Shown here in pieces: positions 7,541 to 64,000 of a stretch of DNA of 64,000 nucleotides. The position numbers and the translations under genes were made by a program. The notes under the pieces were generated by a model that did no database searches, was not told where the DNA came from, and was given only the letters and a program-made list of their open reading frames with translations. Positions within the stretch are counted from its first letter, which is position 1. Every line of letters starts with the position of its first letter. The stretch covers positions 38,623-102,622 of the forward strand of contig JACPTF010000007.1 of NCBI GenBank assembly GCA_016192915.1, read 5' to 3'. This DNA comes from Candidatus Woesearchaeota archaeon. GTDB taxonomy: Archaea; Nanobdellota; Nanobdellia; Woesearchaeales; UBA10216.

Positions 7541-7570
7541 GTTGATAAGGGAGCGTAGAGCTCCCTTATT
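7541..7570 (+). repeat. tRNA leader hairpin GTTGATAAGGGA-loop-TCCCTTATT
   Basis: Stem ATAAGGGA/TCCCTTAT abuts tRNA position +1. The same motif precedes tRNA-Thr and tRNA-Ser(UGA). Confidence 0.7.
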
Positions 7571-7655
7571 GCCGGGAGTGGGCGATCCGGTGCGCCTACC
7601 TGTCTCGAAAACAGGTTTCCGAAAGGATATCGGGGTTCAAATCCCTGTCCCGGCG
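7571..7655 (+). tRNA. tRNA-Ser (anticodon CGA), class II, no intron
   Basis: Hand fold: acceptor GCCGGGA/TCCCGGC, G73. D stem GGGC/GCCT. Anticodon stem CCTGT/ACAGG with loop CTCGAAA. 15-nt variable arm. T arm CGGGG-TTCAAAT-CCCTG. No CCA encoded. Confidence 0.8.
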
Positions 7656-7740
7656 CTCAACCTTCTTTGGCAAGCACAAGCCGACAGCAGTCGGCTGTGC
7701 AGTCCTGCCAAAGCAGGACTTGCAAAGAAGCTTGACCAAG

Positions 7741-7791
7741 CCCAAATCGAGAGCTCTCGATTGGGCCCAGTCGTCTTGCAGACGACTTGGG
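7741..7791 (+). repeat. twin-hairpin element copy A (51 nt)
   Basis: CCCAAATCGagagctctCGATTGGG CCCAGTCGtcttgcagaCGACTTGGG, in the trailer of tRNA-Ser(CGA). Confidence 0.85.
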
Positions 7792-7837
7792 AAATCCACA
7801 TAGCGGCGGGCAGGTCCCAAGCCGAAAGGCGCGGACA

Positions 7838-7850
7838 CCTGTCCCGGCGC
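7838..7850 (+). repeat. second copy of the tRNA-Ser(CGA) 3' end (CCTGTCCCGGCGC)
   Basis: 13/13 identity with 7644-7656. The preceding base is A rather than C, which would break the G53-C61 pair, so it is probably non-functional. Confidence 0.7.
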
Positions 7851-7908
7851 TTCCTCCTTTCAATTCATAAGCTTTTTATACTAATTTCAAACTCAAAAGC
7901 GTTCAACA

Positions 7909-8769
7909 ATGGTATCCGGCAAGGAGTCTGCAAAGAAGGAGCTGGCAGTGGCTAGTCCGGCTGGTAGCAGCGGAACGTCAATAATAAAGAAAGTGCTTGC
8001 CAACAAAACTGTGATGATAGCGTTGGCTGCGCTTGTTGTAGTAATCCTGTTGGTTATCTGGCCTTTCCACGAATTGGACACTGCGAACAAGATTGTCAGC
8101 GGGATATTCTCACGCTCACTTGACAAGCTTGACACCTGCAAGGGTTTTGCAGACCTGGCAGCGAAAAACGACTGCTACAGGGAACTGGCTTTCTCTACAA
8201 ACAACACCAAATTCTGCGACAGGGTGTTTAACGCTTCAAAAATAACCGAAAGCTGTTATGCCAAGCTTGCGGTGGAGGCCAACAGTAAGAATGCCTGCAA
8301 CCAGATAAAAGACGTAAAAGCAAGGGGCTTTTGCCTGCACGAACTGGCAATTAACAAGGTAGAAACGCCCCTTTGCGGCAATATCGATGACAAATCATGG
8401 AGGAACGACTGCTACCGCCAGCTTGCACTTCTAACAGGGAAGCCAGACGCATGCTCAAAGATAGAAGATAACACAGGAATGGCCGACTGCTACCTGGGAC
8501 TTGCCAAAAACATTACTTCAGGGCCAACCTGCGCCTATATTCTAGACCAATCAATGAAAGATGCGTGCTTCTTGGAAATTGGCTCTGTTAATGGTGACAA
8601 GCTGCTATGTGCTGAAATAGAGGAGCCATCTACAAGATGGACCTGCTATCACAGGGCTGCAGTGATTACTGGGGAGATAGGGCTATGCAACAAGATCCCG
8701 GTAAATCTCAACCATAACTGCTTTAATGCTGTAAAGAAAGCGTTTCCCGGGTTAGCAAACAGCAGCTAA
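7909..8769 (+). CDS. membrane-anchored Cys-repeat protein
   Basis: N-terminal TM segment (VMIALAALVVVILLVIWPF). About 7 repeats of a C(Y/F)..LA unit: DCYRELA, SCYAKLA, FCLHELA, DCYRQLA, DCYLGLA, ACFLEIG, TCYHRAA. Confidence 0.55.
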   Translation: MVSGKESAKKELAVASPAGSSGTSIIKKVLANKTVMIALAALVVVILLVIWPFHELDTANKIVSGIFSRSLDKLDTCKGFADLAAKNDCYRELAFSTNNTKFCDRVFNASKITESCYAKLAVEANSKNACNQIKDVKARGFCLHELAINKVETPLCGNIDDKSWRNDCYRQLALLTGKPDACSKIEDNTGMADCYLGLAKNITSGPTCAYILDQSMKDACFLEIGSVNGDKLLCAEIEEPSTRWTCYHRAAVITGEIGLCNKIPVNLNHNCFNAVKKAFPGLANSS

Positions 8770-9910: not shown

Positions 9911-9953
9911 AACCTGACCCCTTTAACATTATAAATCTTTTGCACATTAAGAA

Positions 9954-10092
9954 CCCAAGTCGGCTTGCGCCGCAAATCGGCAGCAGCCGATTGCGCATTC
10001 CGCCTTGCGGAATTGCGACTGGGCCCAGTCGAGTTAGCTTCGTTTTAGAGACGAAGAATGTCGCCTCGCCGGCGACATATGCTCGACTTGGG
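9954..10092 (+). repeat. expanded/nested twin-hairpin element (139 nt)
   Basis: CCCAAGTCG...CGACTGGG encloses two hairpins. It is immediately followed by CCCAGTCGAG...CTCGACTTGGG enclosing two more. Sits in the 3' trailer of tRNA-Val. Confidence 0.7.
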
Positions 10093-10099
10093 GGTTGAG

Positions 10100-10263
10100 T
10101 GGGCTCGCCCAGACATCCTCACTGGCGTTCGGGGCACAAATCGCTGATGCGATTGTGCCCAGTCGGTTTTTCACCGACTTGGGCATTGCCGCCGGGCGCC
10201 AATATTCGAACTGGGGACATCTTCCACGTCAAGGAAGCATCATAACCACTAGATCACGAGCCC
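10100..10263 (-). tRNA. tRNA-Val (anticodon GAC) with 91-nt T-loop intron
   Basis: Minus strand: GGGCTCG...CTTCC-TTGACGT-GGAAG, ATGTC, CCCAG-TTCGAA | intron 10204..10114 | T-CTGGG-CGAGCCC-A. Confidence 0.75.
10135..10183 (+). repeat. twin-hairpin element copy B (49 nt), core of the tRNA-Val intron
   Basis: CACAAATCGctgatgCGATTGTG CCCAGTCGgtttttcacCGACTTGGG. Confidence 0.8.
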
Positions 10264-11410: not shown

Positions 11411-11494
11411 TCTTATCGCCCCAGCACAATCTCCAAAACCTGTGCATAATATCCCGTGGAAGCAACTGGCATCCTGTTGCTGTTGCCAAAGAAA

Positions 11495-11541
11495 CCCAAA
11501 TCGCAGCAGCCGATTGCGCCCAGTCGCAGTAGCGACTTGGG
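11495..11541 (+). repeat. twin-hairpin element copy D (47 nt, first hairpin degenerate), free-standing
   Basis: CCCAAATCGcagcagcCGATTGCG CCCAGTCGcagtagCGACTTGGG. No tRNA nearby. Confidence 0.75.
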
Positions 11542-11685
11542 AAACGTAAAACTATTCGACTAATGCCCCTGTAGGCTTATAATCATAAATAACTTTGGGT
11601 TATAATTTATAAACATTATAAAAGAAGCTGATTTTATAAAAAGGCTCGGAATCTATTTAGTCCTTTGCTACGGAATTCACAATCC

Positions 11686-13289: not shown

Positions 13290-13290
13290 G

Positions 13291-13370
13291 TGTGACCCCT
13301 TTGCGAAAGCGGTCAATCGGAACCCAAATCGCTGCTGCGATTGGGCCCAGTCGACGCAAGTCGACTTGGG
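13291..13370 (+). repeat. composite element: GTGACCC..GGTCAATC hairpin + twin-hairpin copy E
   Basis: tgtgacccctttgcgaaagcggtcaatcgg, then CCCAAATCGctgctgCGATTGGG CCCAGTCGacgcaagtCGACTTGGG. Lies in the 5' flank of tRNA-Leu, antisense to it. Confidence 0.8.
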
Positions 13371-13451
13371 AACCGACGACTGCCTGCAAAAAAGGTCAAT
13401 CAGAAAATGATTGATGCAATTTATAAAGGTTGTTGAGGCCGGTGAGCGCCC

Positions 13452-34099: not shown

Positions 34100-34412
34100 G
34101 CCGCTTTACCAGACTCAGAAAAAAAAGAAGAAAAGCCGGGTTCCGAAACCGGCAAACGCGCTTGCTTCAGCAAGCAACCCACAAGTCTTATTTCAAGAAT
34201 AAACTGTTCATCTTAATATACCTTTCGGTTTTGTCTGGCTATTTTGAAAACCTTGTTTGAAAATTTTTCAATTAAGCCGCAAGTTATTCAAAAAATCACT
34301 GTTTTTCCGTATGATTTACGGCAATGACCGGAACCTTTCTTCACTCAGTGAATAATTTTCAAGAAATCTGGACATAGCTTCATTAAGATGTAAAAACGTT
34401 ATTAAACTTGCC

Positions 34413-34497
34413 GCCGCGGTGGCGAAACCAGGTAGCCGCGCCCGCCTCTCAAGCGGGTGACCCACAAGTCATACGGGTTCAACTCCCGTCCGCGGCG
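34413..34497 (+). tRNA. class-II (Ser-like) tRNA with anticodon CUC
   Basis: GCCGCGG-TG-GCG-(12)-CGC-G-CCCGC-CTCTCAA-GCGGG-TGACCCACAAGTCAT-ACGGG-TTCAACT-CCCGT-CCGCGGC-G. The acceptor stem and G73 are identical to tRNA-Ser(UGA). Confidence 0.6.
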
Positions 34498-34559
34498 TGC
34501 ATTCTTCAAATGTGGCAACAAACTATTTAAACCACCATTTTGTCCCATGACACCGGACC

Positions 34560-34805
34560 GGGCCGGTAGTTAAACCTGGTAAAGGGTTACTGTTAGCGCT
34601 CTCCAGAGTAACGCGCCGCTGGCCGCGGTGTGACCCTTTTTAGAAAAGGGTCAATCAAACCCAAATCGTGCCGTGCACGATTGGGCCCAGTCGGCTAAAG
34701 CCGACTTGGGAACCGTAAAGGCTTCGGGTTCAAACAGCCCTTTTGTTCGCCACTGCTCACAAAAGCGCTGGCGGAAAAACGGGCCTGAAAGTCCCGACCG
34801 GTCCA
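34560..34805 (+). tRNA. tRNA-Ala (anticodon GGC) with three non-canonical introns
   Basis: GGGCCGG/CCGGTCC acceptor with G3:U70 and A73. D arm GTTA-AACCTGGTA | ~27 nt | TAAC. Anticodon arm CGCCG-CTGGCCG-CGGTG. Variable-region intron ~34631-34718. T arm TCGGG-TTCAAA | 34735-34791 | T-CCCGA. Confidence 0.6.
34629..34710 (+). repeat. composite element (GTGACCC..GGTCAATC hairpin + twin-hairpin copy F) forming the tRNA-Ala variable-region intron
   Basis: tgtgaccctttttagaaaagggtcaatcaaa, then CCCAAATCGtgccgtgcaCGATTGGG CCCAGTCGgctaaagcCGACTTGGG. Confidence 0.8.
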
Positions 34806-34861
34806 CTCAATCTTTTTAGTTGCTCTGGCAACCAAAAAGCTTGACCAAAAACGGTGGATAA

Positions 34862-35761
34862 ATGAAAAATGCCGGACTAGTTTACGCTGTTTTATCATCC
34901 CTGTTCCTATCAACAGGCTTCATCCTTGCAAAGCACTTTCTCCAGTACACCAATCCTGAAACCCTGAACACGCTGTGGTTCGGGATTGCGTTTGTAGTTT
35001 CGATTACCCTGCTGCTGGCAAGGAACGCTTCGAAAACCCTGAGGACGTTTAGGGAGCACTGGAAAGACGGCGTTGTCATTGGGGGGGCTAACGCTGTTGC
35101 CGCAGCCTTCTGGTTCCAGGCGATAAACATTGCAGGCCCAACCCTGACGGCGTTTCTGGTGAGGTTCAGCACAATCTTCATCATATTCCTGGGAATATTT
35201 TTCCTGAAGGAAAAACTGCACACGCAAGACATAGCTGGCATGGTGATTGCGCTGGCTGGCGCTTTTACGATAAGCTTTGCCAACGGCGAATACCTAACAA
35301 CGGGAGTGGCAGTAGCGCTTGCAGCCTCTTTTGCAATAGCTGTGCATCAGGTGCTGTCAAAGGTTTACGTCAAGAGCATAAACCCTCTGGCACTTGTTAG
35401 CTTAAGGACGCTTTACACCGCGCTGTTCCTGCTCATATACGCTGTTGCCTTTTCAAAACTCCAGCCCTTTCCGGTAAGCCAGCTGCCCCTCCTTACCCTT
35501 GCGGTAGCAGTTAATGCTGTTCTCGGCTTTGTCTTCTTCTACAAGGCGCTTGAGCTCCTGGATGTCTCAAAGGTTGCGATAATAAGAACCCTTGACCCCT
35601 TCGTTGTTGTAATTTATGCGCTTATCGCATTCCACACTCTGCCATCGCTGCAGCAATTCCTAGGAGGCACCCTTGTTGTAGCTGGGGTGCTTGTAACAAT
35701 GTACGGCCATGCAATACAAACTCTTCTTAGAACAGTAAAAGGACTACCTTGGTTCGGATAA
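34862..35761 (+). CDS. EamA/DMT-family transporter
   Basis: 299 aa, ~10 TM helices in two repeated halves. Confidence 0.75.
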   Translation: MKNAGLVYAVLSSLFLSTGFILAKHFLQYTNPETLNTLWFGIAFVVSITLLLARNASKTLRTFREHWKDGVVIGGANAVAAAFWFQAINIAGPTLTAFLVRFSTIFIIFLGIFFLKEKLHTQDIAGMVIALAGAFTISFANGEYLTTGVAVALAASFAIAVHQVLSKVYVKSINPLALVSLRTLYTALFLLIYAVAFSKLQPFPVSQLPLLTLAVAVNAVLGFVFFYKALELLDVSKVAIIRTLDPFVVVIYALIAFHTLPSLQQFLGGTLVVAGVLVTMYGHAIQTLLRTVKGLPWFG

Positions 35762-36316: not shown

Positions 36317-36503
36317 GTCGGGATAACTCAGCCTGGCTAGAGTGCGGCGCTCATATGTTTGAGCGATGAGCCGGCATTGCTGGCGATGAACTTACTCTAC
36401 CAGAACGGGGAGACGCCGTTGTCGCGAGTTCAAACAGCCCTTTTTCCTCGTGCGCTCGGCAAAAGCGCTGGCGGAAAACGGCCTGGAAGTCTCGCTCCCG
36501 ACA
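36317..36503 (+). tRNA. tRNA-Met/Ile2-type (anticodon CAU) with two introns
   Basis: GTCGGGA-TA-ACTC-AGCCTGGCTA-GAGT-G-CGGCG-CTCATA | 36356-36412 | A-CGCCG-TTGTC-GCGAG-TTCAAA | 36435-36489 | T-CTCGC-TCCCGAC-A. Not initiator-like (no G29-31). Confidence 0.7.
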
Positions 36504-56953: not shown

Positions 56954-57844
56954 ATGGCAACCAAGAACCCGCACTTTTACCTGCCTTTCAACTTCGGGGC
57001 AATCCCGCACGAGCTTGCAGAGTATAATGTTTCCAAGGTTGCCATACTTCCTGTGCCTTATGATGCAACGACAACCTACCAGCCCGGCACAAGGAACGGC
57101 CCAAGGGCGCTCATTGAGGCAAGCCGCTGCCTGGAATTCTACGATGAGGAAACCGGAAGGAACTTCTCAGGCGTTGGGGTGTGCACCCTTGACGAAATGG
57201 AGGTGGTTGATGATGCAGGGAAGATGGTTAACAGGGTCTACGAGGCAGTAAAGGTTCTGCTTGGCGATGGCAAGAAAACAGTCGTAATCGGGGGTGAGCA
57301 CTCAATCAGCAGCGGCTCAGTGAAGGCGCACATGGAAAAATACCCCGACCTTACTGTGCTTCACGTTGATGCGCATGCAGACATGAGGGATGAGCTTGCC
57401 GAAAACAGGTTTAACCACGGCTGTGTTGCAAGGCGGATTTCAGAGATGTGCCCCCTTGTTTCAGTTGGGGTAAGAAGCATAGCCCAGGAGGAGTTTGACC
57501 ACATCACAAGCAGCAACGGCAGGATTAAGGTATTTTTCGCGAAAAACATCCACTCAGGCAGCAGCTGGATGGATGATGTTGTTAAGTCGCTTGGAAAGAA
57601 CGTTTACATCACGATTGACCTTGATGCGTTTGACACCTCAATAATGCCCTCTGTTGGAACGCCGCAGCCCGGCGGCCTTGGATGGTATCAAATGCTTGAG
57701 CTCATGAAAAAAATTGCTGCAGCAAAGAACATTGTTGGCTTTGACGTTACAGAGCTCATGCCAATTCCGGGCAACCACGCCCCTGATGTTCTTGCGGCAA
57801 AGCTCGTTTACAAGCTCATAGGCTACTTCTTCTCCAAGCAATAA
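56954..57844 (+). CDS. speB: agmatinase (arginase family)
   Basis: GGEHSIS, HVDAHADMRDE, TIDLDAFD. Confidence 0.9.
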   Translation: MATKNPHFYLPFNFGAIPHELAEYNVSKVAILPVPYDATTTYQPGTRNGPRALIEASRCLEFYDEETGRNFSGVGVCTLDEMEVVDDAGKMVNRVYEAVKVLLGDGKKTVVIGGEHSISSGSVKAHMEKYPDLTVLHVDAHADMRDELAENRFNHGCVARRISEMCPLVSVGVRSIAQEEFDHITSSNGRIKVFFAKNIHSGSSWMDDVVKSLGKNVYITIDLDAFDTSIMPSVGTPQPGGLGWYQMLELMKKIAAAKNIVGFDVTELMPIPGNHAPDVLAAKLVYKLIGYFFSKQ

Positions 57845-58746
57845 CTGGTGATGAGCTTTACAGGGTGATAGGAAAGCTTAACCCTCTTAAGGTAATCAAC
57901 GCCGAAGTCGTCCTGGGCGTTCAGAAATTCATAGCCTGGCCATAACCTTGCAAATTCCCTGAAAATGAACTGCGCAGCGCCGTTAACAGTGGGAAGGGTC
58001 TTCTCAACAATGTTGCTGCACATACCTTCGGCAAGGCGCTCGCCCAGGCTGTAGCCAACAACCTTGCCATCAACTTTAAGCACAATGCCCTTCACGCCAA
58101 GCTCCCCCGAAAACTTCAGAAGCGTTTTTGCAACCTCTGTTTCAGAATCGAGCTCATAGCGCCACGAGCCATCACCTGCCTCTGCTTTCTGCTCCTGCCA
58201 CAGCTCTGTCAGCTGCAGGCAGCCATCAGCGTGCCTGCTAAAATCAAACTCTTCAATACTGTAGCCATAATTCTTCATGAAAAAGTTAACCTTGTTGCGC
58301 TTTGAGTCGAACTCCGGGCCTTTCAGCTCAACAAGGTCCTTAGTCCTGTAAACATAATCCTGTGTCCAGTAGCTGAGCGTTGCACCAAGTGTTGTAGCGA
58401 GAGCCTCATACTCCTCTTTCATGCACTGAGGAATGTAAATGGCAGCCGGCTTTGCGCCAACGCCAGAAGCCTTATTCATGCCCTCTACAATCCTAAAGCA
58501 CTCAGCAAGTGTCTCAGCGAGCTTTGTGCCGCCAACAGGCGGGCCCCACACAACATAGCGGCCCTTGTCATAGCCAAACACGCACAAATTGCCGTTAATA
58601 ATTGCCCATGTGTGCTTCAGAGGCCCTGCCCAGATAAATCGCATTGCAAATGTAGTATCGGCAAGAGGCTCCTTCACCTGTCCAAAGAACTTCTGGAACA
58701 AATTCCTGTCGCTAAGGGATACGCCCCTCGTGTCATGTAAAGCCAT
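57823..58746 (-). CDS. DUF2156 (MprF C-terminal / LPG_synthase_C-like) protein
   Basis: FAMRFIWAG, GPEFDSKRNKVNFFMKNY, NAQDDFGVDYLKRVKLSYHPV. Confidence 0.55.
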   Translation of the reverse strand: MALHDTRGVSLSDRNLFQKFFGQVKEPLADTTFAMRFIWAGPLKHTWAIINGNLCVFGYDKGRYVVWGPPVGGTKLAETLAECFRIVEGMNKASGVGAKPAAIYIPQCMKEEYEALATTLGATLSYWTQDYVYRTKDLVELKGPEFDSKRNKVNFFMKNYGYSIEEFDFSRHADGCLQLTELWQEQKAEAGDGSWRYELDSETEVAKTLLKFSGELGVKGIVLKVDGKVVGYSLGERLAEGMCSNIVEKTLPTVNGAAQFIFREFARLWPGYEFLNAQDDFGVDYLKRVKLSYHPVKLITSYCLEKK

Positions 58747-58864: not shown

Positions 58865-59803
58865 ATGGAATTGATACCGGAGCCGGAGAAATCCGGCGGG
58901 GAGATAAAGAGGTGCATAAGCCAGTTTGGCTACAAGCCAGAACACAACTACACATATTTCCTTACCACTGCCGAAAGCGGCGCTAAAAACATCTTTCTCA
59001 GGTCGAGCAAGGGCTACGGAGTCCTTGCAGCTTACAAGGAAAAAGCTGCAGAAGTCACTATGATTTCAGAGGCGCTTGCGCCAAGGGACGAGCAGGCTGA
59101 AGTGCTGCATGATGCGCTTGACACGTGCTTTAGCAAGCTTAACGTCCAAAAGTTTGTCGTTGAGCAGGATGATGCGCTGCGGCAGAAAACGCTGAAAGAA
59201 TTTGCCAACAACGGATACAGGGCATTGCCGCCAAGGTACTCGCTCTACTGGCCCCTGTTTGACATGGCGAAGTGGGGCGGCAACGATATGCCTGGCGAGG
59301 ACTGGAAAAAGCTCAGAAACATCAGGAACAGGTTTTTCAATGAGCACTCTGTTGAGGTAGTTGACAGCAAGTCTGTTGATAAGGAGAAACTAAAGAAAAT
59401 TATTAATGAGTGGGTTGAGCGCAGAAAACTTATGAGCCTGGGCGCAAACAGGAAAGACTCCAACCTCGCCTACTACGAGAGATACGTCAGCATGATTGAC
59501 CTCGGCTTTGAAGGCACAAAATTTGCCAAAACTATGGTTGTTGACGGAGAGCCATGCACACTAACAGCCGGCTGGGAAATACCAAACTCGGATGGCGCCT
59601 ACTACTCTGCCATCGGCATAAGCAACTACGGCTTTGAAGGACTGAGCGAGATTGCCAATCTCGACGACCTTCACAGGCTGAAGGAGAACGGCTACAGCAC
59701 AGTTGACTTCGGCGGAAGCCCCATGCCTCTCCTCAAGTTCAAGCTCAAGTTCAGGCCCCATGCTGTTTACGTTACGCACACTTACGCGATTGTGAAGAAG
59801 TAG
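58865..59803 (+). CDS. DUF2156-like protein (divergent paralog)
   Basis: WKKLRNIRNRFFNEH, VDFGGSPMPLLKFKLKFRPH. Confidence 0.45.
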   Translation: MELIPEPEKSGGEIKRCISQFGYKPEHNYTYFLTTAESGAKNIFLRSSKGYGVLAAYKEKAAEVTMISEALAPRDEQAEVLHDALDTCFSKLNVQKFVVEQDDALRQKTLKEFANNGYRALPPRYSLYWPLFDMAKWGGNDMPGEDWKKLRNIRNRFFNEHSVEVVDSKSVDKEKLKKIINEWVERRKLMSLGANRKDSNLAYYERYVSMIDLGFEGTKFAKTMVVDGEPCTLTAGWEIPNSDGAYYSAIGISNYGFEGLSEIANLDDLHRLKENGYSTVDFGGSPMPLLKFKLKFRPHAVYVTHTYAIVKK

Positions 59804-61337: not shown

Positions 61338-64000
61338 TCAATAATCCAGGAATATCTCCACATTCTGCCCTTTTATTCTGGCGACTGCTTCGCTGCCAAA
61401 CGTTCCCTGCTGAGGCCTTGTTTCGGCTACGTCAAGCTTGAAAGCGCCAACCTTTGACTTTACTTCAGCAGCGCTTTCCACCAGAGCGCTTTTCAGCAGC
61501 TGCAGCTGCTCAGGAACAACCACGCTCACTGCAATAACCTGCTCCCTAGTCAGGCCAGCAGTCTTCCTTGCCTGCTGGATGTGCCTTACCAGTTCCCTAA
61601 CGTAGCCCTCTGCCTCCATCTCCTCTGTGGTGTCGGTATCAACATAAAGGCTGCCATACGCCGACTCAGCAACTGCAAAGTTTGCCGGAACTTCCATCTC
61701 TGTTATGAGGTGGTCTTTCGTTATTGAAATCATCTGGCCGTCAATGTCAAGCTTAAAGCTACCGTCCTTCTCAATGTGGCTCAGTATTCCAGAAGTGCCG
61801 TGCATGGCAAGGTTGGCTATTATTTTCGGAGTCAGGCTGCCGAAAACAGGGCCAAGCTTGTTATAATCAGCCTTAACCCTCATCCTGGCTTCCTTGAACT
61901 CATCAGAGAGGGTGAGCTCCTTCACATTGCTCTGCCTCTTGATTATTTCAGCAAGGGCCCTCACAGACTGCTTAGTATTTTCGTCTTTGGTGGCCACTGA
62001 AACCCTCTTAACAGGCCACCTAAGGCCGCGCTGAATCTTGTCCCTTGCAGAAAGAACTGATTCAACTATGCTTCTTGCAACAGCCATCTGGCTTTCAAGA
62101 AGCGAGTCAACAGCCTCCGGCTTGGGCCAGTCGGCAAGGTGAACGCTCACGGGCTCCCAAGTCGCTTTGCTGCGACTGGGCCCAATCGTGTCGGACACGA
62201 TTCGGGTCTCCCTAACGATAAGCTGGTAGATTTCCTCAGTCACGTAAGGAGCAAAAGGAGCCAGCAGCTTAACCAACCGTGAAATCACATAGCGCAGGGT
62301 GTACTGCAGGGCATCGTCAGGCTCAGCTGCCCTCCCCCTAATCAGGCGAATATACCACCTTGAAAAGTCATCCGTGACAAGCCCCTTAAGCTCATGCACG
62401 CAGACATGGTACTCATGCTGGGACAATGCACGGTCAACAGCGGCAGCAACCGAATTGGTTCGGGAGATAATCCACTTGTCTTCTATTTTAAGCGAAGCGT
62501 CCTTCACTACTGCCTGCTTGCTGATGACTTCAGAAGCGAAATAGCAGCTGTTCCACAGGGTAGTAAGGAATGGCAGAACATTCTCGCTGACAATGTTGTA
62601 GCTAAAGCGCTTTGCAGCTTCAGGCGAGGTGCTGCAGAACTGAAGGCGGACAGCATCAACGCCGACTTTGTCAAAAATCTCCCACGGATTCAGGACATTG
62701 CCCTTGCTCTTGCTCATCTTGTCTCCGTGCTCATCCACAACATGGCCTGCGCAGACAACGCTCTTGTAAGCAAAATCATCAAAAAGTAGTGTCCCTAGGA
62801 CGTGCAAGGTGTAGAACCAGCCACGAGTCTGGTCAATGGCCTCTGCTATGAAATCGTATGGGAAATGTTTTGCAAATAATTCGCTGCTGCCTTTGCCAAA
62901 CGGGTAGTGGAACTGCGCAAAGGCTGCAGCGCCTGAATCATACCAGCAGTCGATAACGTACGGCACTCTGGACATTGTTCCATTGCAGCTGCCGCATTTC
63001 AGCTTTACTTCGTCAATAAAAGGCTTGTGAAGGTCAATTTCAACGTTTTTAGGCAAATCAGCGGCTTTTTCTTTCAGCTCCTTAACGCTGCCAATTGCCA
63101 CTTCGCCCCTACAGCCGCCGTTGTCGAGGGTTGATAAGGGCGCAGCAGTGCCCTTATTGTCGCACCTCCAAATCGGCAGGGGAGTCCCCCAGAACTTGTT
63201 CCTGCTCAGGGCCCAGTCCTTGACGTTTGCGAGCCAGTCGCCAAACCGGCCGTGCTTAATGTGCTCGGGGAACCAGGCAATTTTTTCATTAAGCTCAAGC
63301 AAGCGCTCCTTATACCTGCTGACAGCAATAAACCATGACTTAAGCGCGTAATAAATAAGCGGGCTCGAGCATCGCCAGCAAAAAGGATAGGTGTGTGTGT
63401 AGTCCTTTTTGCTGAACAAAGCACCGTCCTTTTCAAGGCGCTCAATAATCATGGGATCAGCATCCTTGACAAAAATGCCGGCATAGTCCTCAACGTCCTT
63501 GGTGAATTTCCCGTCTTCGCCAACAGGCTGGATAAAAGGCAGGCCATGCTTCTTGCAGTTCTCGTAATCCTCCTCGCCAAATGCCGGAGCTTGATGAACA
63601 ATACCGGTGCCTTCCTCTGTTGTAACAAAATCGGCCAAAGTGACAAACCACGCTGGCCTGTCAAGCTTGCCAACAAAGCAGTCAAACAAGGGCACATACT
63701 CCTTTCCCAGAAGCTCGCTGCCAGCCATCTTTTGCACAATGACCGGGTTGGTGAAATATTTTGCTGCCAAATCGTTGGCAAGGATAAACTGCTTGCCAGG
63801 ATATGCGCTGTCCTCAACAATAGCATAAGTTATGCCAGGGTGAACAGCAAGCGCAACATTGCCTGGAATAGTCCAGGGAGTGGTTGTCCACGCCAGAAAA
63901 AACCTGCCCGGGTTTTCCTTAAGCTGGAACGCAGTCGTTATGGCAGGCTCAGCTATCTCATCATAGCCCAAAGCAACCTCGTGGCTGCTTAGCGGAGTCT
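61338..64000 (-). CDS. ileS: isoleucyl-tRNA synthetase (N-terminus beyond window end)
   Basis: KMSKSKGNV, CP1 editing region, conserved SVHLADWP. The ORF stays open to the window edge. Confidence 0.95.
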   Translation of the reverse strand, partial: TPLSSHEVALGYDEIAEPAITTAFQLKENPGRFFLAWTTTPWTIPGNVALAVHPGITYAIVEDSAYPGKQFILANDLAAKYFTNPVIVQKMAGSELLGKEYVPLFDCFVGKLDRPAWFVTLADFVTTEEGTGIVHQAPAFGEEDYENCKKHGLPFIQPVGEDGKFTKDVEDYAGIFVKDADPMIIERLEKDGALFSKKDYTHTYPFCWRCSSPLIYYALKSWFIAVSRYKERLLELNEKIAWFPEHIKHGRFGDWLANVKDWALSRNKFWGTPLPIWRCDNKGTAAPLSTLDNGGCRGEVAIGSVKELKEKAADLPKNVEIDLHKPFIDEVKLKCGSCNGTMSRVPYVIDCWYDSGAAAFAQFHYPFGKGSSELFAKHFPYDFIAEAIDQTRGWFYTLHVLGTLLFDDFAYKSVVCAGHVVDEHGDKMSKSKGNVLNPWEIFDKVGVDAVRLQFCSTSPEAAKRFSYNIVSENVLPFLTTLWNSCYFASEVISKQAVVKDASLKIEDKWIISRTNSVAAAVDRALSQHEYHVCVHELKGLVTDDFSRWYIRLIRGRAAEPDDALQYTLRYVISRLVKLLAPFAPYVTEEIYQLIVRETRIVSDTIGPSRSKATWEPVSVHLADWPKPEAVDSLLESQMAVARSIVESVLSARDKIQRGLRWPVKRVSVATKDENTKQSVRALAEIIKRQSNVKELTLSDEFKEARMRVKADYNKLGPVFGSLTPKIIANLAMHGTSGILSHIEKDGSFKLDIDGQMISITKDHLITEMEVPANFAVAESAYGSLYVDTDTTEEMEAEGYVRELVRHIQQARKTAGLTREQVIAVSVVVPEQLQLLKSALVESAAEVKSKVGAFKLDVAETRPQQGTFGSEAVARIKGQNVEIFLDY
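62156..62206 (-). repeat. twin-hairpin element copy G (51 nt) inside the ileS reading frame
   Basis: Sense strand: CCCGAATCGtgtccgacaCGATTGGG CCCAGTCGcagcaaagCGACTTGGG. Translated in frame across RIVSDTIGPSRSKATW. Confidence 0.85.

Follow-up and report, generated by a model that had tools for sequence, protein, structure and literature searches.

Can a tRNA gene that is interrupted at three places, none of them the canonical one, still give rise to a working tRNA, or is such a locus the remnant of a gene in decay? The question is raised by a 246-nt locus on the forward strand (34560-34805) of the 64-kb stretch of DNA analysed here, referred to as the window, which comes from a groundwater Ca. 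Woesearchaeota archaeon of the DPANN superphylum (the neighbouring DMT/EamA transporter gene, 34862-35761, has close homologues that are so labelled). A sequence-only reading had described the locus as a tRNA-Ala gene split by three introns. As outlined below, the locus is most likely a functional tRNA-Ala(GGC) gene whose three introns would be removed by the splicing endonuclease EndA, a reading to which we give a probability of just under 90%.

A tRNA-Ala(GGC) gene in four exons

All parts of the gene lie on the forward strand. Exon 1 (34560-34581; tRNA positions 1-21) carries the acceptor 5' strand GGGCCGG, U8 and A9, the D-stem 5' strand GTTA and the D loop AACCTGGTA, and is followed by intron 1 (34582-34608, 27 nt). 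Exon 2 (34609-34630) provides the D-stem 3' strand TAAC, G26 and the anticodon arm, with the anticodon GGC at 34621-34623 and C37 at 34624. Intron 2 (34631-34718, 88 nt), which has a three-hairpin fold, separates it from exon 3 (34719-34734; positions 44-59), made up of the variable loop AGGCT, the T-stem 5' strand TCGGG and the T-loop bases TTCAAA. Intron 3 (34735-34791, 57 nt) interrupts the T loop, and exon 4 (34792-34805) completes the tRNA with T60, the T-stem 3' strand CCCGA, the acceptor 3' strand CCGGTCC and A73; the terminal CCA is not encoded. In Sprinzl numbering the introns occupy sites 21/22, 43/44 and 59/60, leaving the canonical 37/38 site unoccupied as the sequence-only reading had held. 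Its estimate that about 170 of the 246 nt are intronic agrees with the 172 nt counted (27 + 88 + 57). Only the length of the second intron, given as about 87 nt, has to be changed to 88 nt, its location at 34631-34718 being right.

The joined exons amount to 74 nt (GGGCCGGTAGTTAAACCTGGTATAACGCGCCGCTGGCCGCGGTGAGGCTTCGGGTTCAAATCCCGACCGGTCCA), which ARAGORN folds as a tRNA-Ala(GGC). All stems of this product are intact, with the acceptor stem GGGCCGG/CCGGTCC, the D arm GTTA-AACCTGGTA-TAAC, the anticodon arm CGCCG-CTGGCCG-CGGTG, the variable loop AGGCT and the T arm TCGGG-TTCAAAT-CCCGA, and it has the conserved features expected of a cloverleaf (U8, A14, G18 and G19, the T loop TTCRAAT, a 7-nt anticodon loop and U33). 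The alanine identity proposed earlier from the G3:U70 pair (G3 at 34562, T70 at 34802) and from A73 (34805) is borne out by this fold and by an identical intronless gene in a relative. The G3:U70 pair is the identity element of alanyl-tRNA synthetase (AlaRS).

Standard detection tools do not recover the gene in its genomic form. Run on the window, ARAGORN leaves the tRNA-Ala undetected and calls only a tRNA-Ser (7571-7656) and a tRNA at 34412-34498, and Rfam also leaves it undetected at both gathering and permissive thresholds. At least 6 tRNA genes are present in the window, of which ARAGORN and Rfam detect 2 and miss four. The region 34560-34805 folds at -118.7 kcal/mol, with z = -6.7 relative to shuffled sequence.

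The tRNA 5' end is preceded, at a distance of about 30 nt, by a putative archaeal promoter, formed by a B recognition element (BRE)/TATA-like box (CAACAAACTATTTAAACC, 34517-34533, forward strand, with TATTTAAA at 34524-34531). The box AACTATTTAAAC is kept at an equal upstream distance in the window and in four related loci (L001, L004, L007 and L048), the remaining flank having diverged, and its conservation about 30 nt upstream suggests that the tRNA-Ala gene has a promoter of its own. Eight nucleotides past the gene, a run of five T on the same strand (34813-34817) may, judged by its sequence, act as an archaeal transcription stop.

Orthologues with fewer introns

Loci syntenic to that of the window were fetched via homologues of the DMT/EamA transporter. 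In one of them, L007, an uninterrupted tRNA-Ala (2130-2203) is 100% identical to the predicted spliced product and scores 53.4 bits against the Rfam tRNA family RF00005 (gathering score 29); exon 1 corresponds to its positions 2130-2151. L005 and L001 have the same exons and a single intron at 59/60, of 19 nt and 103 nt, respectively. Introns 1 and 2 are thus missing in L007, L005 and L001, and exon 1 runs directly into exon 2 in all three. L004 has a variant gene with only one intron, of 34 nt, at 43/44. This comparison fixes the exon-intron boundaries independently of any folding argument and, apart from the length of intron 2, it reproduces exactly those proposed in the sequence-only reading. 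Moreover, the bases flanking each junction differ, so that the boundaries are unable to slide.

The exons are identical at 74 of 74 positions in six genomes (window, L001, L005, L007, L016 and L027) and at 73 of 74 in L048, while identity over these genomes falls to 65-82% in the 5' flank and to 57-68% in the 3' flank; the DMT protein of close relatives is only about 75-84% identical. These comparisons indicate that the exons are under purifying selection. The locus itself is contained in groundwater metagenomes. A 386-nt unitig identical to positions 34554-34939 occurs in four separate groundwater DNA runs, in which co-occurring variants are also present, and the arrangement is therefore not an assembly chimera.

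Splicing motifs at the three junctions

Archaeal tRNA introns are bounded by a bulge-helix-bulge (BHB) motif, in which exon bases p-5 to p-2 pair with intron bases q-5 to q-2 (p and q being the last base of exon and intron) and a 3-nt bulge surrounds each cut. In addition to this central helix (H), a flanking helix is required, either between exon and exon (h) or between intron and intron (h'). The sequence-only reading had named the lack of such motifs among the findings that would mark the locus as a pseudogene; a BHB-like motif is present at all three junctions. At intron 1, the central helix is formed by CTGG (34576-79) and CCAG (34603-06), paired at 4/4 positions, and is flanked by an h' helix of 5 bp (34583-87 with 34598-02), the bulges being 34580-82 (TA|A) and 34607-09 (AG|T), where the bar marks the predicted cut. 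This HBh'-type motif replaces the GTTACT/AGTAAC pairing to which the sequence-only reading had pointed. At intron 2, GCGG (34625-28) pairs with CCGT (34713-16) at 4/4 positions including one G-U pair, next to a 4-bp h helix in which the anticodon bases GGCC (34621-24) pair with GGCT (34720-23); the bulges are 34629-31 (TG|T) and 34717-19 (AA|A), and the motif is of the hBH type. Intron 3 has an hBH-type motif as well, with TTCA (34729-32) paired to TGAA (34786-89) at 4/4 positions, the 5-bp T stem (34724-28 with 34793-97) serving as h, and bulges at 34733-35 (AA|C) and 34790-92 (AG|T).

Motifs of this quality are rare by chance. A fully paired central helix with a flanking helix of at least 4 bp arises at random window positions with p of about 0.8-1.2e-3 per junction, and among the alternatives within 10 nt on either side of each true junction it is found once or twice per 441. 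The three motifs can form together with the acceptor and T stems at -104.9 kcal/mol, compared with an unconstrained minimum of -116.4. When the BHB-compatible excisions between 34540 and 34825 were enumerated in 1082 combinations, a single one gave a tRNA of normal length, namely the removal of the three introns described above; four other products were accepted, all of 78-92 nt.

The same three sites across 47 related genes

The exon-1 pattern GGGCYGGTAGTTAAACCTGGTA matches 45 species-representative genomes, nearly all of them Woesearchaeota or mislabelled relatives. Together with the syntenic loci, these yield a survey of 47 genes, to which the mature 74-mer was aligned with a spliced aligner. 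Intron number varies widely in this set: 21 genes have none, 15 have one, 6 have two, and 5 (those of the window, L016, L022, L038 and L043) have three. Canonical introns occur in a few of the 47 genes, and the non-canonical ones reuse the same three sites: seven are at 21/22 or beside it (20/21 in one case), 43/44 has ten, and 59/60 has nineteen or twenty. The BHB test is passed by 7/7, 10/10 and 17/19 of these, respectively. The intron bodies measure 12-110 nt and are unrelated between species beyond the motif strands.

The 21/22 site is filled in L012, L016, L022, L038 and L043, always with the CTGG/CCAG pair. The 59/60 site is the commonest among the relatives (19 genes), and TGAA stands at intron positions -6 to -3 in 17 of them. 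At 43/44, filled in 9 genomes besides the window, the central helix covaries over the 10 genes, GCGG occurring with CCGC or CCGT, AGGG with CCCT, CCTT or CTCT, and TGGG with CTCA. Such paired changes of exon and intron strand are, at the level of the aligned sequences, the signature of compensatory evolution of a predicted splicing helix.

The 43/44 site also draws attention to position 37, where the sequence-only reading had pointed out an unusual C. This base (window position 34624) is indeed C, as it is in the intronless orthologue, and it varies among A, T, C and G within the family, with a pyrimidine in about half of the family's GGC genes. Of the 19 GGC genes whose base 37 is a pyrimidine, 10 have an intron at 43/44, as against 0 of the 17 in which it is a purine (Fisher p = 4e-4, uncorrected for phylogeny). 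Within the 43/44 motif, the flanking helix includes a pair between base 37 and G45. A link between the pyrimidine and the intron is therefore possible; alternatively, the base may be a mere marker of the clade in which the intron arose. In either case C37 is not a sign of decay, because it is present in the intact, intronless gene of L007.

A probably spliced gene and the alternatives

If the gene is functional, its expression can be pictured as follows. A precursor of about 250 nt would be transcribed from the gene's own TATA-like promoter. In its folded form, exon and intron would pair over 4 bp at each intron, this helix being flanked by two 3-nt bulges that lie on opposite strands; the motifs for this are visible in the sequence. 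By analogy with archaeal tRNA splicing, EndA would then cut the six bulges (PMC4090602), and an RtcB-type ligase would presumably join the four exons and circularise the introns. The missing CCA would be added post-transcriptionally, and G3:U70 would direct the charging with alanine, as expected from established AlaRS recognition. The introns themselves would be evolutionarily unstable passengers, the same gene having 0 to 3 of them across relatives.

Several points weigh against this reading. Motifs 1 and 2 are relaxed (HBh' and hBH) and not of the full hBHBh' type, and the h' helix of intron 3 is poor. Motif 2 further needs an opened anticodon stem, with positions 38-41 paired to the intron instead; such opening is the usual situation in introns of the non-canonical kind. 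For an elongator tRNA, a pyrimidine at 37 is uncommon. No RNA run containing the locus was found, so that we infer splicing, and a Pfam scan of the 68 open reading frames (ORFs) of the window revealed no EndA, RtcB or CCA-adding enzyme.

The best surviving alternative, although quite improbable, is that the locus is a decayed tRNA-Ala pseudogene, whose insertions are DNA repeats or mobile elements that are never removed from the transcript, while another copy decodes the alanine codons. This would agree with intron 2 being a copy of a repeat (described below) that also lies between genes and in frame within the isoleucyl-tRNA synthetase (IleRS) gene, where it lacks an in-frame BHB motif, with the neighbouring class II tRNA of L001 having similar insertions without a clear BHB motif, and with the locus appearing in no RNA run. 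A pseudogene is, however, hard to reconcile with exons that stayed perfectly conserved while flanks and introns diverged, with BHB-like motifs at 3/3 junctions, with compensatory changes between the strands of the central helix, with the reuse of the same three sites by unrelated introns in many species, and with the retention of three-intron versions in five species. Taken together, exon conservation, the series of relatives, motif covariation and the unitig in four runs argue against both a pseudogene and an assembly artefact.

A second possibility, in our judgement highly improbable, is that the gene is functional but that EndA does not remove all of its insertions; intron 2, for example, might leave by another route, or alternative products or functional intron circles might be formed. 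The relaxed motifs (HBh' at intron 1, hBH at introns 2 and 3), the very stable intron folds (the whole precursor having z = -6.7 relative to shuffled sequence) and the hairpin module of intron 2, the base of which is conserved while its tips vary with compensation, would suit such a scheme. Nevertheless, the introns match no C/D-box or other Rfam family, between species their sequence is conserved only in the motif strands, and relaxed motifs are the normal substrate of broad-specificity EndAs (PMC4090602, PMC5829648). Finally, the idea that this strongly structured 246-nt RNA, which adjoins another tRNA, is a signal recognition particle (SRP) RNA, an RNase P RNA or an unknown non-coding RNA with tRNA-like ends deserves practically no credence, as no Rfam family matches the region at E = 0.1 or better and intronless orthologues, with a plain 74-nt tRNA at the same place in relatives, refute it.

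Two other candidates were considered and rejected. A split or permuted tRNA gene is ruled out by the four exons being colinear, on one strand and within 246 nt, and group I or group II self-splicing introns by the sizes of 27, 88 and 57 nt and the lack of an Rfam match. A permissive Rfam search over 34350-34900 gave only the neighbouring tRNA and chance matches (mir-2229, E = 0.4, in intron 3), and SRP RNA, RNase P RNA and other non-coding RNAs were rejected as readings of the locus.

Intron origins and a palindromic double-hairpin repeat

Two of the three introns have recognisable relatives. The tRNA-Met(CAT) genes of the window and of L001 have T-loop introns (36435-36489 in the window) that match intron 3 at about 80-89% identity. 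Nearly all of intron 2 duplicates an element at 13290-13380, beside a tRNA-Leu-like gene, and intron 2 also has a relative in the 59/60 intron of the L001 tRNA-Ala. Within intron 2 (34660-34710, forward strand) lies a near-perfect palindrome of two hairpins, CCCAAATCG..CGATTGGG followed directly by CCCAGTCG..CGACTTGGG. The 16-nt core of this module, CGATTGGGCCCAGTCG, has 12 strand matches at 7 sites of the 64-kb window, where 0.01 matches would be expected. These sites (about 7740-7800, 9945-10090, 10130-10185, 11490-11545, 13320-13377, 34660-34710 and 62156-62206) are in tRNA introns, beside tRNA genes, after ORFs, between genes and in one coding region. The copies of the repeat agree in the stem bases and show compensated variation at the hairpin tips. 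In four metagenomes the module has a word depth about 5-10 times as high as its flanks. The repeat has no match in Rfam, and the Pfam scan found no transposase among the 68 ORFs of the window.

The copy in a coding region is in the IleRS ORF (61338-63971), where 51 nt of the repeat (62156-62206, reverse strand) are inserted in frame and add 17 residues, TRIVSDTIGPSRSKATW, between EEIYQLIVRE and PVSVHL. The insertion is missing in the closest homologue (78% identical) and in nine others. An explanation of this insertion as a BHB intron was rejected, as no in-frame motif was found that restores the sequence of the orthologue, and the 17 residues are for this reason probably translated.

The existence of copies outside tRNA genes points to a DNA repeat resembling a miniature inverted-repeat transposable element (MITE) rather than to mobility of introns only, and the sequence relationships point to a repeat that may become an intron where a BHB motif can form. 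A further step would be to propose that the palindromic double-hairpin repeat now creates, enlarges and moves tRNA introns in this Woesearchaeota lineage, an idea which we hold tentatively and consider more probably wrong than right. Under this idea, an insertion in a tRNA gene would persist only if its flanks allowed the formation of a relaxed BHB motif that is excised by a broad-specificity EndA, and a selfish repeat would in this way turn into an intron. The tRNA body would adapt in turn, the pyrimidine at 37 building the flanking helix of the 43/44 motif by pairing with G45. If true, it would make the genes surveyed here a natural series, with identical exons and between none and three introns, in which gain and loss can be studied, and it would explain the "missing" tRNAs that standard tools report in Nanobdellota.

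Other interrupted and unusual tRNAs nearby

Further tRNA genes of the window are interrupted. A tRNA-Met(CAT) gene (36317-36503, forward strand), missed by ARAGORN and Rfam, has two introns. The first, of 57 nt (36356-36412), occupies the canonical 37/38 site and has a relaxed motif (H 3/4, h 6, h' 4); the second, of 55 nt (36435-36489), lies at 59/60 (H 4/4, h 5) and is a paralogue of intron 3 of the tRNA-Ala. On the reverse strand, a tRNA-Val(GAC) gene (10263 to about 10100), likewise missed by the detectors, has a 91-nt intron in its T loop (10204-10114, site 59/60, H 3/4, h 5). This intron contains the double-hairpin module, a larger nested-hairpin copy of which lies just downstream (about 9945-10090). 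A class II gene resembling tRNA-Leu(TAA), with A73, is found at 13289-13158 on the reverse strand and has two insertions near the anticodon loop (about 13255-13235 and 13228-13204). Spliced by hand, it gives a cloverleaf that is accepted by ARAGORN; one of the insertions has no BHB motif, and the boundaries are approximate.

The last 13 nt of the tRNA-Ser(CGA) gene, CCTGTCCCGGCGC (7644-7656), recur 194 nt downstream at 7838-7850. Between the two copies lies a stretch rich in hairpins, one repeat module among them, an arrangement that resembles an insertion or integration scar at a tRNA 3' end.

Directly upstream of the tRNA-Ala lies a class II tRNA of 85 nt (34413-34497, forward strand) with G73 and a 15-nt variable arm that forms a stem-loop. 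Its positional orthologues at L048 1161-1077 (reverse strand), L053 299-384 and L001 2502-2737 share the acceptor, D and T arms. The anticodon differs: the window has CTC ("Glu"), L048 and L053 have the Leu anticodons CAG and GAG, respectively, and L001 has GAT ("Ile"). Compensating changes are seen in the anticodon stem and the variable arm. One possibility is that a Leu-type tRNA is undergoing decay or remoulding in some genomes; another is that the tRNA has a mismatched anticodon. A scan of metagenomes with its 3' end yielded one additional locus only, L053. For the insertions in the L001 copy there is no clear BHB motif, and many solutions are equivalent.

At 34133-34195, some 250 nt upstream of the class II tRNA, a conserved hairpin, AGCCGGGTTCCGAAACCGGCA, precedes a piece that resembles the middle of a tRNA and consists of a D-stem 3' strand and of hairpins resembling an anticodon arm and a variable arm, with no acceptor or T arm. 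The hairpin and its piece are also found at L048 about 1440-1385 (reverse strand), L053 17-78 and L001 about 2258-2310. The variable-arm hairpin of the piece matches that of the downstream tRNA of the same genome, which suggests concerted evolution. The piece could be a tRNA fragment left behind by recombination, or part of a split tRNA.

Public gene calls and mechanically derived ORFs cross some of the interrupted tRNAs, namely L001 2403-2984 (reverse strand), L001 4509-5825 (forward strand) and the window ORF 7542-7955. In L001, a "protein" of 193 residues spans both tRNAs, and a glycosyltransferase (GT4) call reaches across the tRNA-Met intron region, which lengthens it by about 45 residues. 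Undetected tRNAs are the probable cause of these calls, which would be annotation artefacts. Elsewhere in the window, two adjacent genes (57823-58746, reverse strand, and 58865-59803, forward strand) have an LPG_synthase_C domain as in MprF-like proteins, which carry out aminoacyl-tRNA-dependent aminoacylation of lipids. A non-ribosomal use of aminoacyl-tRNA by their products is possible; no link between these genes and the odd tRNAs was found.

Significance and comparison with known systems

The maximum known for an archaeal tRNA gene is three BHB introns, described mainly in Thermoproteales (PMC4033280, PMC8450103), and the sequence-only reading was right in this respect. Its surprise at finding such a gene in the present context has to be toned down, because disrupted tRNA genes have already been reported in DPANN archaea (PMC5829648). 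In that report, DPANN genomes with an alpha4 EndA that has an L3 loop contain more disrupted tRNA genes, and its survey includes one Woesearchaeota genome and incomplete tRNA sets (PMC5829648). Likewise, the Micrarchaeota ARMAN-1 and ARMAN-2 are reported to have multiple tRNA introns together with an epsilon2 EndA (PMC3239211). The training sets of the tRNAscan-SE intron models exclude DPANN (PMC8450103). A 2026 preprint on 208 complete Nanobdellota genomes describes order-level "missing" tRNAs, among others in many complete genomes of Woesearchaeales, and speculates about split genes. Heavily interrupted genes are a simpler explanation than split genes for the tRNAs that appear to be missing in Nanobdellota. 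In addition, identical exons with 0-3 introns, covariation of the splicing helix and an intron shared with a repeat represent unusually clean data on the gain, loss and tolerance of archaeal introns. A precursor with three relaxed motifs, one of them requiring the anticodon stem to open, would predict a broad-specificity EndA in Woesearchaeota.

The closest parallels are the tRNA genes of Thermoproteales (Pyrobaculum, Thermofilum and Caldivirga; Sugahara et al. 2007/2008, via PMC4033280 and PMC8450103), which also have up to three short non-canonical introns, including in the D loop, the variable region and the T loop. As in the gene described here, these introns are bounded by BHB or relaxed hBH/HBh' motifs, separate colinear exons, encode no protein and are missed by standard finders. 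The host differs, being a mesophilic groundwater DPANN archaeon here and a hyperthermophilic crenarchaeon there, and so does the endonuclease, which by analogy with other DPANN archaea is expected to be of the alpha4 type with an L3 loop (PMC5829648) and is an (alpha-beta)2 enzyme with a crenarchaeal loop in Thermoproteales. The transposition of introns described for Thermoproteales (PMC4090602, PMC4033280) has its counterpart in similar introns being present in different tRNA genes (intron 3 of the tRNA-Ala and the tRNA-Met intron) and at different positions of the same gene (43/44 in the window, 59/60 in L001). In contrast to Thermoproteales, the shared sequence also occurs between genes and in frame in IleRS.

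The DPANN cases (PMC3239211, PMC5829648) concern the same superphylum and tie disrupted tRNAs to EndAs with an extra loop that broadens specificity. The portions of the two articles at hand contain no gene-level account of three-intron Woesearchaeota tRNAs, to which exact boundaries, recurrent sites and a presence/absence polymorphism across 45 species are added here. In the tRNA-Thr(GGU) of Caldiarchaeum subterraneum (PMC3293823), too, intron number varies among close genomes and tRNA fragments lie nearby. The locus described here differs in having no recombinase-encoding element, its family's insertions being non-coding and 12-110 nt long. Several BHB-type introns at non-canonical sites of a single tRNA gene are also known from Cyanidioschyzon merolae (PMC3728597), in which the genes are eukaryotic and nuclear and some are circularly permuted as well. 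In all, multi-intron tRNA genes of this kind are already known, and what the well-supported tRNA-Ala(GGC) gene adds is its comparative series of introns and the link of one of them to a dispersed repeat.

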